A stretch of 64,000 nt of DNA. Source: a virus. Made by a program: the position numbers and the translations under genes. Positions 4,285-58,940 of this stretch are shown here, piece after piece (within the stretch, counting starts at the first letter, position 1; each line of letters starts with the position of its first letter). The notes below the pieces were generated by a model. That model ran no database searches and was not told the origin of the DNA. It saw nothing but the letters and a program-made list of their open reading frames with translations. Where the stretch lies: positions 87,720 through 151,719 of IMG/VR virus record IMGVR_UViG_3300045988_166613; one strand, written 5' to 3'.

Positions 4285-4336
4285 GTTGAAATAAATTAAA
4301 TAATTACTTGATTTATAGTGATATTTGTGTTAATAT
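4285..4336 (+). promoter_or_regulatory. AT-rich box + sigmaA-type promoter
   Basis: GTTGAAATAAATTAAATAATT is followed by TTGATT-N17-TAATAT, with TGT just before the -10. Confidence 0.6.
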
Positions 4337-4358
4337 ATAATCAAAGGAGATGATAAAT

Positions 4359-4511
4359 ATGGAATTGATGAGAGATAAAACCAAAGAAAATATAATAGAT
4401 AGATTAACAACAGTTATAGCGATATTGGGAGTTGTTATAATATATTTGTTGGGAACAATAACCACATCACTTATAGGTGCTTATTTATTACATATAATTT
4501 ACGATAGATAA
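4359..4511 (+). CDS. small membrane peptide (50 aa)
   Basis: SD AAAGGAG lies 9 nt upstream. Hydrophobic segment 'VIAILGVVIIYLLGTITTSLIGAYLL'. Below the size cutoff of the ORF track. Confidence 0.45.
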   Translation: MELMRDKTKENIIDRLTTVIAILGVVIIYLLGTITTSLIGAYLLHIIYDR

Positions 4512-4513
4512 AA

Positions 4514-4565
4514 GTTAAAATAAATTAAAGAATTGATTGACAAATAATATTATCTATTGTATAAT
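4514..4565 (+). promoter_or_regulatory. AT-rich box + consensus sigmaA promoter
   Basis: GTTAAAATAAATTAAAGAATTGA is fused to TTGACA-N17-TATAAT. Confidence 0.75.
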
Positions 4566-4625
4566 AAAGACATAAGATAAAGAGATTAATACAACAAAGA
4601 ATAATATAAAAAGGAGCGATTTTAA

Positions 4626-5252
4626 ATGGAAACAATGATTAAAAATTGTCAAAGAGGAGATGTATTTTATGCTAATCTTGGAGAAAAACCAGAAGGAGTT
4701 CAAGATTGCGAACAATATGGGATGAGACCAGTTGTAATAATTCAAAATAATAAAGGAAACAGATATAGTCCTACTACAATAATTGCACCAATAACAACAA
4801 AGATAAACAAAAATAAGATTCCTACACACGTAAAACTAGACGGGGAATACATAGGTTTACCAAAAGAAAGTATGGCAATGTTAGAACAAATTAGAGTTTT
4901 AGATAAAAGAAAACTAAAAGAAAAAATAGGGGAAATAAGCCCAAAAGATAGAAAGAAAATAAATGTTGCAGCGGCATTATCTTTAAATCTATTATCTATA
5001 GAAGAAAAGAATTTAGAAATAATAGAAGAGAAAGTTAATGAAATTGAAAGAATAGATTCACACATAAGATATGCGATCAAAAATGGAGTAGATATAGAAA
5101 ATTTCTTTGAAGGTTTAATAGAAGAAAGAGAGGCTGTTATGGAGGATTTAGAAGCTTTTTGTAAAGCTAATGGATTAAATCATAATGATTTTTTGAAAGG
5201 GTGTAACAAAAGAAAAATAAGTAAAAAAAGCAACAAAATAGGGGTGTGTTAA
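4626..5252 (+). CDS. MazF/EndoA (PemK-family) endoribonuclease with ~85-aa C-terminal extension
   Basis: 'RGDVFYANL...RPVVIIQNNKGNRYSPTTIIAPITTKINKNKIPTHVKL...MLEQIRVLDKRKLKEKI' aligns along its length with B. subtilis EndoA/MazF. Residues after ~125 are extra. Confidence 0.9.
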   Translation: METMIKNCQRGDVFYANLGEKPEGVQDCEQYGMRPVVIIQNNKGNRYSPTTIIAPITTKINKNKIPTHVKLDGEYIGLPKESMAMLEQIRVLDKRKLKEKIGEISPKDRKKINVAAALSLNLLSIEEKNLEIIEEKVNEIERIDSHIRYAIKNGVDIENFFEGLIEEREAVMEDLEAFCKANGLNHNDFLKGCNKRKISKKSNKIGVC

Positions 5253-5255
5253 AAT

Positions 5256-5795
5256 ATGGCTATCGTTAAAATATTGGGGGACTATAAGAGTAAAAAAAAT
5301 AAGAATAATTTAGATAATTTTATAGTAAAAAAGCTTAGTTGTAATATAGATAAAGAGTTTAGTCAAGAGCTTTTTATGGAAAATTTTTTGATTGAAAAAA
5401 CAATAGCTAAAAATGAATCAAAAAGTGTTATTCAACAAAGGTTAAAAAATTTAGAAGATATAAAAAAGAAATATTTTATATCTAGTGATAGTTTAGAAAA
5501 TAAGATTACATTGTTAACCTGTTTTACCAAGTTATCTAATAAATATAATTCACAATTAATAGAATTTATTGAAGATAATTTAGTGGAAATATTAGAAAGG
5601 TATAAACTAAATTGGACAATAAGTATATTAAATCAAATCAAAAGATACGATGAAGAAATAGTTAAATATATAGTCTATCTAAAAGAATTAAAGTCAGAAA
5701 TGATCAAACTTGATTATGGAGGGACTATTCCCTCCTATAGAGATATTCAAGATAGTATCTCTATAGGAGGCGAGTACAACTTCCAAAAAGCATAA
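5256..5795 (+). CDS. hypothetical protein (co-transcribed with the MazF-like gene)
   Basis: Starts 4 nt after the mazF-like stop. No recognisable motif. Confidence 0.6.
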   Translation: MAIVKILGDYKSKKNKNNLDNFIVKKLSCNIDKEFSQELFMENFLIEKTIAKNESKSVIQQRLKNLEDIKKKYFISSDSLENKITLLTCFTKLSNKYNSQLIEFIEDNLVEILERYKLNWTISILNQIKRYDEEIVKYIVYLKELKSEMIKLDYGGTIPSYRDIQDSISIGGEYNFQKA

Positions 5796-5859
5796 TTTAC
5801 AGTACATAATTAAAAATAAAATAGAAACGTAGTAAAATACGGATTATAAGTAGTCTATA

Positions 5860-5891
5860 ATCTTCCTACTTTAGAAAAGAAGATGTTTTTT
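5860..5891 (+). terminator. weak terminator-like hairpin
   Basis: ATCTTC/GAAGAT stem with a 13-nt loop, followed by GTTTTTT. Confidence 0.35.
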
Positions 5892-56754: not shown

Positions 56755-57195
56755 ATGGATAATAAAGAAATAAACACAAAAGACTTATTAGGAATAGATT
56801 TAGGATTTGAAAATTGTGAGGGGATGTTCATTCCAGTAGAAGCGTTGGATAACATATACATACAAGATGGAGAAATTAATACATATATAAATCTTAACGA
56901 AAAAATTGAATATAAAGGTTTTTATGATGATTTAACACCATTACAAAGAATAAATAAATATGATGATATAACATCTGTAAATTTAATATATAAAGATAAC
57001 GATGTAGAATATGAGATTATTAGATATAACGAATGGGAACAAGAGAATAGATATCAAACAAGCGAATTAATATCTTGGAATAAACTACATTTAGAAATAT
57101 CTAAAGATGTACTAAAAAGAAAAATTCAATCTATGAAAGATCAAGCAGCTCAATTATTACAACAAGCAGAAGAATTAGAATTAAGTATAGCTTAA
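56755..57195 (+). CDS. hypothetical protein
   Basis: SD GTGGGG upstream. No recognisable motif. Confidence 0.6.
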   Translation: MDNKEINTKDLLGIDLGFENCEGMFIPVEALDNIYIQDGEINTYINLNEKIEYKGFYDDLTPLQRINKYDDITSVNLIYKDNDVEYEIIRYNEWEQENRYQTSELISWNKLHLEISKDVLKRKIQSMKDQAAQLLQQAEELELSIA

Positions 57196-57262
57196 AGTTA
57201 TATCTAAAATGATTTACTCGTAAATGAAAATAATTTTATAAAATAAAAGGAGAATACATATT

Positions 57263-57814
57263 ATGATTAATATTTGTGTAACAGGACATAGACCTTCAAA
57301 TCCAAATTTAGGAGGATACGATTGGAATTCTGATAAAAATCAACGAATTATGTTAAAGCTTTATCAAACTGTAGAAGATATATTAAAAGAAAATCCTAAT
57401 GAAACTATTAATTGTATAGAGGGTGGTGCATTAGGTGTAGACCAAATGTTCTTCAGAAGTTGTGAAGTATTAAGAGCTAAATATCCTGAAAGAATAACTC
57501 TTGAGGTAGCAATACCATTTAAAAATCAAGCTAATAAGTGGTTTAATAAAACAGATGTAGATAGATATTATAAACAAGTTTTAATTGCTGATGATGTTAC
57601 ATTTGTAGATGAATTGGAGAAGTATCATTTAAAAGGAATAGAAAATGAAGTATACCATCCAGCTAAGATGATGAAAAGAAATATGTATATGGTAGATAAA
57701 GCCGATATAGTTATAGCAGTATGGGATGGAAGCAAAGGTGGTACTGGTAATTGTGTTAATTATGCTAAAAAAGTAAATAAAAATATTATAAGAATAGATC
57801 CAAGAGAGGTGTAA
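57263..57814 (+). CDS. SLOG-superfamily protein (YpsA/DUF1273-like)
   Basis: 'ICVTGHRP', 'GGALGVDQ' and 'AVWDGSKGGTGNCV' occur in the order typical of YpsA-type SLOG domains. Confidence 0.6.
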   Translation: MINICVTGHRPSNPNLGGYDWNSDKNQRIMLKLYQTVEDILKENPNETINCIEGGALGVDQMFFRSCEVLRAKYPERITLEVAIPFKNQANKWFNKTDVDRYYKQVLIADDVTFVDELEKYHLKGIENEVYHPAKMMKRNMYMVDKADIVIAVWDGSKGGTGNCVNYAKKVNKNIIRIDPREV

Positions 57815-57819
57815 AATTA

Positions 57820-57987
57820 ATGAGTAAAATAATAAAGAGATTACATACCTTATTATTATTCATAGAAGTATTATGTATGATATTGGTATGGTTTCAATCA
57901 AATATTAGTACGTTAAAAATAAGTTGTTTCTGTTTGATAATATGTGTATTTATAAATGATTTGAGTGAGGTAGTTAAACATGAGTAA
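57820..57987 (+). CDS. small membrane protein (55 aa, below track cutoff)
   Basis: ATG follows GAGAGGTG. Two hydrophobic helices. Confidence 0.4.
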   Translation: MSKIIKRLHTLLLFIEVLCMILVWFQSNISTLKISCFCLIICVFINDLSEVVKHE

Positions 57988-58369
57988 AGGAATATTATAT
58001 ACAAGTTATTTTGGTAATTGGAGAAAATGGAAACAATTAGATGCTTTTACTGTAGCAATATGTAGAAAAAGACCACCACACATGAATTATAATAAAGAAG
58101 GAATTCAAGAATTACTAGAATTAGCACCATCAGAAGGATTGTTAAAAGCATATAAAAATGGTTTGATATCTCAAGATGACTTTAGAAATAAGTTTTTAGA
58201 TGAATTAGATAATATTAAATCTGCAAATACATTATTCTTAATACAAAGCTTATTAGATATGGGTGTAAATATATGTTTGCTATGCTATGAGTCCAATAAT
58301 GATTTCTGTCATAGACATATAGTAGCCGAAATATTTGATGAAGCTGGATATAAAATTATTAAATGTTGA
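57980..58369 (+). CDS. DUF488-like protein
   Basis: 'LYTSYFG' at the N-terminus and 'LLCYESNNDFCHRHIVAEI' match the DUF488 signature LlC.E....CHR..ia. Confidence 0.55.
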   Translation: MSKGILYTSYFGNWRKWKQLDAFTVAICRKRPPHMNYNKEGIQELLELAPSEGLLKAYKNGLISQDDFRNKFLDELDNIKSANTLFLIQSLLDMGVNICLLCYESNNDFCHRHIVAEIFDEAGYKIIKC

Positions 58370-58416
58370 AATAAATTAAATAATTGATTGATTTATTTTA
58401 AAAATAGGTATATAAT
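58364..58416 (+). promoter_or_regulatory. AT-rich box + sigmaA-type promoter
   Basis: GTTGAAATAAATTAAATAATTGA is fused to TTGATT-N17-TATAAT. The TGA stop of the previous gene is the TGA of GTTGAAA. Confidence 0.65.
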
Positions 58417-58461
58417 TAAAAATGTCGAAAGACAAATACATAAACAAAAGGGGATATAAAA

Positions 58462-58917
58462 ATGTTTGAATTAGAAGAAAAAAATAAAGATATGGAACAA
58501 ATTATGGAAGGAGCTTTAGATATAATACTTGAAAAAGACTTAACTATTAAAGAAAAATTTGAAGAACAAAATGAACTAATATTAGAGCTTAGAGAATTAA
58601 AGAATCCACCAATTATAACAACTCTTCCAGATATATTATTTAAATCTATATTAGAAATAAGAGAAAATCAAGAAGATGGAGAATACTTATTACATATATT
58701 AATAAAAGAATTAACAAACAATAAAGATCAATACATAGAATTTTTAGAAGATAAATTAAATACATTTTGCAGCAAAGAAAGTATCTGCAATTGTTGCGGA
58801 ACTGAATTAATTTATAATTATCATGAAGAGTGTGTTGGAGAGTTTCAAGGCTCACCAGCTTATCAAGAATTTGTTGATGATGAAGGATATTGTCCTTATG
58901 GCTGTATGACATATTAA
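58462..58917 (+). CDS. hypothetical protein with C-terminal Cys cluster
   Basis: 'CNCCGTEL...EECVGE...YCPYGC'. Confidence 0.6.
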   Translation: MFELEEKNKDMEQIMEGALDIILEKDLTIKEKFEEQNELILELRELKNPPIITTLPDILFKSILEIRENQEDGEYLLHILIKELTNNKDQYIEFLEDKLNTFCSKESICNCCGTELIYNYHEECVGEFQGSPAYQEFVDDEGYCPYGCMTY

Positions 58918-58940
58918 AATAAATTAAAGAATTGATTAAA
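58914..58940 (+). repeat. AT-rich intergenic box, stand-alone copy
   Basis: TTAAAATAAATTAAAGAATTGATTAAA contains the stop of the previous gene. SD TAGGAG follows. Confidence 0.6.

Follow-up and report, generated by a model that had tools for sequence, protein, structure and literature searches.

The DNA described here is a stretch of 64,000 nt (the window) from the IMG/VR virus record IMGVR_UViG_3300045988_166613 (positions 87,720 to 151,719), in which a short AT-rich sequence, referred to below as the box, recurs between genes. As judged from its gene content and its closest matches, the window is the early/replication arm of an SPbeta-like phage-plasmid of Clostridium perfringens, about 150 kb in size. 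It has a G+C content of 25%, and all of its genes lie on the + strand. Pfam matches are those of a replication and nucleotide-metabolism arm, with NAD ligase, gyrase B and A, DnaB, RecJ, RecD2, FolD, thymidine kinase, methylases and a MazF-like toxin, and with PolIII-alpha and NrdD both split. The gene order is that of SPbeta (YopQ-YopR, YorF, YorG, YorH, YorI/DnaB, YorJ, YorK/RecJ, YorL/PolIII-alpha), and blastp against SPbeta proteins recovered YopQ (Table 1), YorG (E = 2e-83), YorF and YorH. The precomputed Pfam families YorF and Phage_SPbeta_YorH are found in the region, and a YorE-like gene is also present.

An exact-protein look-up places the region on contigs of about 150 kb, and one ENA contig (k119_110478) is 100% identical to nt 29032–50057 of the window. 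Members of the protein clusters come from C. perfringens, one of them labelled as plasmid-borne. Just past the end of the window the direction of the genes flips, and lysis and integrase genes follow; no box was found in the 9.4 kb of this opposite-strand region. There were no close relatives among the INPHARED phages or the PLSDB plasmids, where the only matches were 61 nt of Twort intron DNA and distant RecD2 sequences, and a RecD2-based search of IMG/VR for related loci returned nothing.

The box and its two settings

The box has a 16-nt core, AAATAAATTAAAKAAT, and a 24-nt form, GTTRAAATAAATTAAAKAATTRAT. Exact matches to the core number 18, against 0.02 ± 0.14 expected from dinucleotide-preserving shuffles of the 64,000-nt window, so that the repeat, first noticed from the sequence alone, withstands comparison with shuffled AT-rich controls. 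With up to two mismatches allowed, there are 31 matches (30 of them on the + strand) against 8.6 ± 2.7 in the shuffles. All 22 copies listed in the original prediction are present, although the positions it gave are those of the 24-nt form, and thus precede the core by 2 to 10 nt. Three more copies were recognised in the current study (11202 and 19926, with one mismatch each, and a degenerate copy at 24700), and the total is about 25, plus a degenerate copy near nt 1694. The information profile delimits the conserved unit as TTRAAATAAATTAAAK, with the 3' part, AATTRAT, under weaker constraint. Among close relatives, a small and non-independent sample, the 12-nt core AAATAAATTAAA has a mismatch rate of about 1–2% compared to 5.9% in the flanks.

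Open reading frames (ORFs) take up 90% of the window, yet nearly all curated copies (22 of 24) fall outside them. A box is present in 19 of the 43 intergenic gaps of at least 25 nt, and no other common motif was seen in the 24 box-less gaps. All curated copies are co-oriented with the genes, and the stop codons of upstream genes lie within the box at 19855, 32051, 58369 and 58917, in agreement with the earlier description. Apart from two self-complementary AATT words the box has no dyad symmetry, which makes an operator for a dimeric helix-turn-helix (HTH) protein unlikely. In relatives, a box is found upstream of mrpR on the + strand. A wider scan of genome contigs with a 20-nt box was dominated by single chance matches in AT-rich genomes.

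Eight copies, designated class A (Table 1), run directly into a sigmaA promoter, and the box-promoter fusions proposed originally are all borne out. Five perfect (12/12) TTGACA-N16/17-TATAAT sites occur in the window (nt 4537, 19864, 32065, 37790 and 52700), every one of them directly after a box, and the remaining box-preceded promoters are at 11769 (11/12), 58388 (10/12) and 4308 (Table 1). The box lies at about -37 to -60 of these promoters, again as predicted, and its spacing to the -35 hexamer is fixed throughout class A, as it is in three other lineages. The first 15–20 transcribed bases are also kept across lineages (AATAATTGTTAAGAG, AAAGACATAAGAT; the window and related contigs L140, L141 and L144), indicating that a whole promoter module of about 90 nt is repeated, beyond the box alone. 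Two class A promoters are followed, 6–7 nt past the -10, by TGTCGAA (nt 37825–37831 and 58423–58429), which forms the stem of tiny 5' hairpins (TGTC-GAAG-GACA and TGTC-GAAA-GACA). This heptamer is the consensus of the Spo0A '0A box'; there are three copies in the window compared to 1.4 expected, and the case for it is one of position.

About 17 copies (class B) stand alone, with no -35/-10 behind them. Most of these end 14–62 nt before a start codon, and ten end 14–28 nt before it. They had been described as sitting 10–45 nt upstream of a Shine-Dalgarno (SD) site, which does not fit the copies at 53628 (146 nt) and 21521 (possibly within a called ORF). Three class B copies follow a class A copy in tandem (19841/19922 and 32042/32111, spaced as in Table 1, and 37767/37911, spaced by 144 nt). 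No box or promoter candidate other than the copy at 38967 precedes the 13.6 kb replication block that extends from YorG to RecD2. The two classes also differ in sequence, position -4 (GTTR) being a G in 8/8 promoter-linked boxes compared to 4/17 stand-alone boxes, and the 3' end reading TTGAT in the former and TTAAT or TTAAA in the latter; on this contrast, class A and class B boxes may differ in affinity. The box was also considered as a sigmaA promoter in its own right and rejected: reading TTRAAA as the -35 puts an unconserved hexamer at the -10 position (17 nt further on), and reading AAKAAT as the -10 leaves it without a conserved -35.

While all consensus early promoters of the window bear a box, three other promoters are without a full one, namely those of the yopQ-mrpR operon, of a gene with an SOS box and of an HTH gene. 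The yopQ-mrpR operon is flanked by hairpins on both sides, the terminator at nt 4237–4268 closing the unit, and the design of its promoter (hairpin, degenerate box, weak -35, extended -10 TGATATAAT or TGATACAAT) is conserved in four diverged lineages (window nt 1664–1740; L139, L140, L141, L142, L144 and L145). The promoter at nt 21785–21833, which has a perfect LexA/SOS box, could be a candidate SOS-controlled antirepressor promoter. It is followed by two acidic ORFs, nt 22008–22832 (isoelectric point, pI, 4.8) and nt 22895–23197; the latter shows no sequence similarity to Sar, the antirepressor of phi3T, and its designation as a Sar-like antirepressor is speculative. The HTH gene at 13150, of the Cro/CI type (nt 13100–13458 with its upstream region), has its own box-less extended -10 promoter (TGATATAAT). 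It has a homologue of 61% identity in L141, and its product may act as another regulator that is made in the carrier state. Such a split, in which lytic promoters would be repressed and those for maintenance and SOS sensing would be exempt, is what a repressor/operator system predicts.

Table 1. Box copies, promoters and regulatory genes in the window
Coordinates (nt)	Strand	Feature	Remarks
1694..1740	+	yopQ-mrpR promoter	hairpin, then degenerate box, TTGATT-N17-TGATATAAT (extended -10)
1797..3152	+	YopQ homologue	repressor gene follows immediately, as in SPbeta; blastp vs SPbeta YopQ E = 1.6e-10
3173..4243	+	MrpR/YopR/SroF-family integrase-fold repressor gene (predicted), 356 amino acids	Pfam MrpR_N_CB E = 2.8e-9
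4285..4336	+	class A: box + TTGATT-17-TAATAT	just 3' of terminator 4237-4268
4514..4565	+	class A: box + TTGACA-17-TATAAT (12/12)	
10052..10075	+	class B	before SD
11198..11221	+	class B, 1 mismatch	overlaps stop of ORF 10996-11220
11746..11797	+	class A: box + TTGACA-17-TATACT	upstream of YorE-like gene
11964..11987	+	class B	before YorE-like gene 12010-12321
15674..15697	+	class B	
19841..19891	+	class A: box + TTGACA-16-TATAAT (12/12)	
19922..19945	+	class B, 1 mismatch	81 nt after class A box, 14 nt before ATG of 19956
21517..21540	+	class B	after hairpin (-16.9 kcal/mol), possibly within called ORF 21456-21764
21785..21833	+	box-less sigmaA promoter TTGCAA-17-TATAAT	followed by perfect LexA/SOS box AGAACATATGTTCG
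22895..23197	+	small acidic protein, 100 amino acids, pI 4.6	downstream of SOS box, after ORF 22008-22832
23982..24005	+	class B, 1 mismatch	
24696..24719	+	degenerate class B, 2 mismatches	before thymidine kinase gene
31011..31034	+	class B	
32042..32093	+	class A: box + TTGACA-17-TATAAT (12/12)	
32111..32134	+	class B	69 nt after class A box
33218..33241	+	class B	at cassette hot spot
37100..37123	+	class B	
37767..37818	+	class A: box + TTGACA-17-TATAAT (12/12)	
37911..37934	+	class B	before YorF homologue
38967..38990	+	class B	after hairpin (-13.1 kcal/mol)
52677..52728	+	class A: box + TTGACA-17-TATAAT (12/12)	just 3' of terminator 52627-52660
53624..53647	+	class B	
56673..56696	+	class B	
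58365..58416	+	class A: box + TTGATT-17-TATAAT	
58913..58936	+	class B	
		sample class A box, 26 bp	GTTAAAATAAATTAAAGAATTGATTG
		sample class B box, 26 bp	CTTAAAATAAATTAAAGAATTAAACA

A candidate reader of the box

The 90% cluster to which the product of ORF 3173–4243 belongs is named 'phage lytic cycle repressor MrpR family protein' (C. perfringens), and homologues of the protein match PF22822 and PF22823. A profile of six clostridial homologues retrieves the YopR/MrpR chains of the PDB with E of about 1e-7, far ahead of true integrases, and the AlphaFold2 model (predicted local distance difference test score 83.5) has as its top PDB fold match by Foldseek the DNA-bound SroF of phi3T (9RD5; template modelling scores 0.65/0.72), followed by MrpR and YopR. 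Identity to phi3T SroF is about 18%. By profile and modelled fold, the protein is a member of the MrpR/SroF family. The glycine mutated in SPbeta c2 (G136), where the change G136E makes the phage heat-inducible, is conserved in it. The columns that hold the RI, Lys, His and Tyr residues of recombinases are occupied by L/K, D, K and I, respectively, in an alignment of 21% identity, of which the C-terminal part is uncertain and in which an invariant Tyr330 lies nearby.

MrpR and SroF both bind repeated boxes. In SPbeta, MrpR binds SPBRE, as seen in ten chromatin affinity precipitation sequencing peaks at SPBRE-bearing promoter regions and confirmed by electrophoretic mobility shift assay; it represses PaimR and PyosX about 5-fold, and is a monomer without recombination activity (PMC10516654). 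In the structure of phi3T SroF on its asymmetric 26-bp box, CAGTAATTTTATTTTTATTCTTAATG (PDB 9RD5), one monomer wraps almost fully around the DNA. It reads 24 of the 26 bp, among them two A-tracts in succession, where the minor groove is narrowed. No catalytic tyrosine is present in SroF, whose sites are numerous and spread over the phi3T genome, and each phage has a specific repressor/antirepressor (Sar) pair, with sar under a LexA box (bioRxiv 10.1101/2025.11.27.690993).

Comparison with relatives shows that the box and the repressor vary together. In three lineages the repressor homologue is 58%, 48% and 43% identical to that of the window, and each lineage has an AT-rich box of its own that abuts its consensus promoters: TATATAAAAAAATAAAATAAAWTA in L142, AAAATAAATTTAAAATA in L141 (at least 10 copies, of both classes) and ATAATTAATTAAATAAA in L140, and the lineage variants are used in class A and class B copies alike. 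The L140 contig (JBOFPP010000010.1, from a metagenome-assembled genome of C. chrysemydis) is a natural mosaic. Its YorG and YorF are 94% and 84% identical to those of the window, and its DNA is 82.5% identical over nt 37743–46512, but its MrpR is only 43% and its YopQ 50% identical. In L140, 10 of 17 copies have T at core position 5, where the window has A in 22 of 23; the degenerate position K is always T, compared to G in 12 and T in 11 in the window; and 15 of 17 copies have A at position 16, where 20 of the 23 window copies have T. The orthologues of 37767 and 38967 are among the sites that changed in parallel. That independent, otherwise alignable sites changed in this way points to a trans-acting reader that is specific to the lineage and belongs to the lysogeny module, and speaks against a host factor or an A/T tract with a purely structural role. 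Across the four lineages, including the mosaic, the sequence comparison indicates that the box variant tracks the repressor variant.

Taking together the repeat statistics, the layout of the copies and its recurrence in SPbeta and phi3T (see below), the family and modelled fold of the protein, and the co-variation, the boxes are probably the operators of an MrpR-like master repressor, with the stand-alone copies serving as extra operators or roadblocks. Of the three options first put forward for the box (the binding site of a dedicated phage or host factor, a second promoter class, or a portable cassette), a phage factor is accordingly the favoured one; it is not likely to be the HTH protein (nt 13150–13458) that had been suggested for binding assays, the MrpR/SroF-family protein of ORF 3173–4243 being the better candidate. 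In the carrier (lysogenic) state, we infer that this integrase-fold protein, which would no longer recombine DNA, clamps as a monomer on every box and keeps the early genes silent. At class A copies the clamp, abutting the -35, would keep RNA polymerase (RNAP; sigma region 4 and the C-terminal domain of the alpha subunit, alpha-CTD) off the promoter. The 17 or so stand-alone copies, often 69–144 nt downstream of a class A promoter, would be additional operators or roadblocks that stop read-through within early operons of 5–15 kb. Upon SOS induction an antirepressor would strip the repressor from the boxes, and the naked A/T-rich box may then aid transcription as an UP-like element.

Several points weigh against this proposal. 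Two thirds of the copies have no promoter, and the stand-alone copies at 21517 and 38967 come after hairpins and are not followed by a sigmaA promoter, as would be the case for an autonomous promoter. No SroF/MrpR protein is known to act as a roadblock. Over the full 24 nt the mismatch rate in close relatives is 6.8%, which is not below that of the flanks, as K and the 3' part toggle. YopQ co-diverges with MrpR, so the co-variation does not single out MrpR, and gene conversion among copies could be an alternative cause of it. With the phi3T box (Phi3TRE) the box shares only short words (AAAATAAA, AAGAAT) and its A-tract character, and it has no alignable similarity to SPBRE; as such boxes are phage-specific, this mismatch weighs little.

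Competing explanations and other features of the element

Another view of the box is that of a strong UP element (an alpha-CTD site) for the early sigmaA promoters, with the stand-alone copies as inert relics of cassette recombination within the box. The class A core, A/T-rich with A-tracts and located at about -54 to -39, resembles the UP elements at about -40 to -60 of very strong promoters, and some mosaic junctions do fall exactly at a box, 15 of 86 inter-genome site pairs sharing one flank only. UP elements are, however, degenerate, and are not known to occur as near-identical promoter-less copies directly before ribosome-binding sites, and the box is, as had been remarked at the outset, too conserved for a plain UP element. 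The stand-alone copies are unable to serve the next gene, since the start codon comes before a -10 could fit; their core is conserved and carries the same lineage-specific substitutions as the promoter-linked copies. The boxes of phi3T and SPbeta, for which binding is established by experiment, show the same stand-alone layout, and the UP-element view is considered unlikely.

Nor is it probable that the stand-alone boxes form a second promoter class for a phage polymerase or sigma factor, such as a YonO-type two-barrel RNAP, with class A copies being tandem box and sigmaA promoters. A conserved element of 20–24 nt that ends 14–62 nt before start codons does recall T7-type or T4 late promoters, and the hairpin-preceded copies at 21517 and 38967, with no sigmaA promoter, lie ahead of long gene blocks. 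Relatives have a gene for a YonO-like RNAP, an enzyme whose promoter sequence is unknown (PMC5467207). In one of them (L007, IMG/VR 3300010259_000061), nt 5905–8697 encode a 930-amino-acid protein that matches both Pfam RdRP and SPbeta YonO (tblastn 8e-9); by these matches it is a single-chain RNA polymerase of the YonO type, and its gene comes directly after a stand-alone box. Against this, no sigma factor or RNAP was found by Pfam among about 50 proteins of the window, and independent tandem promoters would have no need of the fixed box-to-(-35) spacing that class A and three other lineages show. A box stands ahead of the yonO-like gene itself, and there is none in the part of the late arm that was sampled. 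In SPbeta, YonO has a single start site, which serves only the late operon (PMC5467207), and no SPBRE-like sequence was found in the SPbeta yonK-yonN gap. The second promoter class of the original prediction is therefore disfavoured. A combined scheme, in which the promoter-less copies would also be middle-class promoters for the element's YonO-type single-chain, two-barrel RNA polymerase, with repressor and polymerase competing for the box, is a long shot; if true, it would provide the first promoter consensus for the YonO enzyme family.

Very improbable, too, is a role as a recombination boundary for cassette exchange, in the manner of promoter-stem-loop (PeSL) modules or integron attC sites and possibly mediated by the integrase-fold protein. 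Different genes do follow an identical upstream sequence and box in relatives (L012:5696 vs L013:1518; L012:4353 vs L010:4359), homology with relatives ends at the window boxes 10056, 15678 and 33222, and the candidate binder has the fold of a tyrosine recombinase. In the alignment of 21% identity, however, its columns for the catalytic Arg, Lys and His hold other residues; MrpR showed no recombination activity (PMC10516654), and SroF has no catalytic tyrosine (bioRxiv 10.1101/2025.11.27.690993). Non-redundant homology breakpoints lie near a box in 4 of 53 cases and near box-less gaps in 12 of 53, both being about 2.4–3 times the chance expectation, and this similar enrichment suggests that the box is an occasional microhomology rather than a dedicated junction. 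The earlier likening to PeSL modules of T4-type phages is weakly supported: those are likewise repeated early-promoter modules between small accessory genes, with some mosaic junctions coinciding, and some junctions here are exactly at a box. Most window copies, however, have no promoter or stem-loop, and mosaic junctions show no excess at boxes over other gene gaps. About 30 nt just upstream of the 33218 box (TTAAAACTTAACATTTAACCAAATTTA; nt 33195–33222) are common to L010 (4330–4359), L012 (4325–4353) and L013 (715–745), with the flanking genes differing on both sides, which marks a cassette hot spot between RecU and YorF.

Least probable of all is a function at the RNA level, with the box as an A/U-rich leader element that lies immediately 5' of ribosome-binding sites and enhances translation or is processed by an RNase, since the strict co-orientation with genes and the ten copies close to start codons are set against eight copies that lie upstream of a promoter, at a fixed -35 spacing unrelated to any RNA role and with no SD behind, and no Rfam family matched at the gathering threshold.

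Some other features of the element were also noted. The PolIII-alpha gene (nt 45089–46582 and 48123–50366) is interrupted by about 1.5 kb (nt 46583–48122) carrying a NUMOD3 endonuclease ORF (nt 46770–47546), while the relative JASZSY010000005.1 has an uninterrupted gene for a protein of 1369 amino acids. Nucleotides 47633–47693 match intron-bearing regions of Staphylococcus Twort-like phages, with no Rfam family at gathering score. An insertion of 283 nt (nt 62009–62291) divides nrdD, the gene for anaerobic ribonucleotide reductase; it is absent from the IMG/VR relative L004 (where the alignment jumps from 62003 to 62295) and is probably a small intron. The second part of nrdD also has an activase-like Fer4_12/radical-SAM domain fused to it. 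A PemK/MazF-like toxin with a C-terminal extension of about 90 amino acids is encoded by the next sizeable gene downstream of the repressor (nt 4626–5252). This gene keeps its position in all lineages (51–99% identity), and in SPbeta MazEF is linked to the same lysogeny module. The idea that the box is a MazF cleavage site was dropped, as it has no UACAU-type sites.

Comparison with known repressor/operator systems

Dispersed operators are known from other phages. Cluster A mycobacteriophages have 20–35 stoperators, bound by the repressor (gp71 in L5), which are asymmetric, occupy short gaps between genes and all point in the direction of transcription. Some belong to the early promoter, but the majority lie at a distance from any promoter and act as elongation roadblocks. 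The boxes of the window are likewise asymmetric, numerous, intergenic and co-oriented with transcription. Stoperators differ in being 13-bp, GC-rich sites for an HTH repressor of an unrelated phage lineage, and a roadblock role for the window copies is only inferred. Phage P1 C1 operators are asymmetric 17-bp sites, dispersed in more than a dozen copies over many operons of an extrachromosomal prophage, but the C1 repressor belongs to another family and most of its operators overlap promoters.

The nearest parallels are in SPbeta and phi3T. A scan of SPbeta for CAAATACAAAWAATATGTAT (SPBRE) gave 12–14 copies, all co-oriented with genes. Some of these make up the TAGACA-N17-TATAAT spacer, whereas others immediately precede a separate -35/-10 (yonX, aimR) or an SD site (second copy of yonX, yopV, yopM), and there are tandem pairs 64–68 nt apart. 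SPbeta and the window thus have the same repressor family, the same yopQ-yopR synteny, and co-oriented copies at early promoters and before SDs. At PaimR, SPBRE is 7 nt upstream of the -35 and repression occurs from there, and SPBRE ahead of yonP-yonO has its counterpart in the box that precedes the YonO-like RNAP gene in relatives. Unlike the window box, SPBRE mostly forms the -35/-10 spacer rather than lying upstream, and there are fewer copies per kb.

In phi3T (scanned from 50 to 100 kb), the gene-sense sequence TTAAGAATAAAAATAAAATTAC is present in at least 12 copies, a density of at least 12 per 50 kb that matches the 25 per 64 kb of the window. Five are 2–3 nt from a -35 (76030; 90122, before yorE; 58068; 70529; and 68773, before aimR), and four are just before an SD (87233; 90561, before yorF; 82234; and 58157), with 58068 and 58157 forming an A-to-B tandem 89 nt apart. 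Boxes precede the YorE-like gene (11746, 11964) and YorF (37911) in the window as well, and in both elements the box is an asymmetric, A-tract-rich sequence of 22–26 bp on the gene-sense strand, accompanied by an integrase-fold repressor that is a monomer in phi3T. The sequences themselves differ (TTAAGAATAAAAATAAAATTAC in phi3T, TTRAAATAAATTAAAKAATTRAT in the window), and phi3T is an integrated Bacillus prophage with an arbitrium system, whereas the host here is a Clostridium and no arbitrium system was seen in the window.

An SroF/MrpR-type repressor/operator system, known from Bacillus phages, would thus be present in C. perfringens with a box sequence of its own. This would extend monomeric, integrase-fold repressors and their operators from Bacillus prophages to a widespread, extrachromosomal phage (about 150 kb) of a pathogen, and it yields an operator consensus and a map of the early promoters and operons that are likely to be repressed. 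The four lineages, one of them in a near-identical replication module, make up a natural series of repressor/box specificity variants that can be used to dissect the clamp-like reading of long A-tract DNA. The promoter-less copies pose a question that is common to SPbeta, phi3T and this element, and that can be tested: do SroF/MrpR repressors also act as transcription roadblocks? All three have the same arrangement, with boxes that abut a -35, boxes that stand just before an SD, and A-to-B tandems, spaced by 64–89 nt in SPbeta and phi3T.

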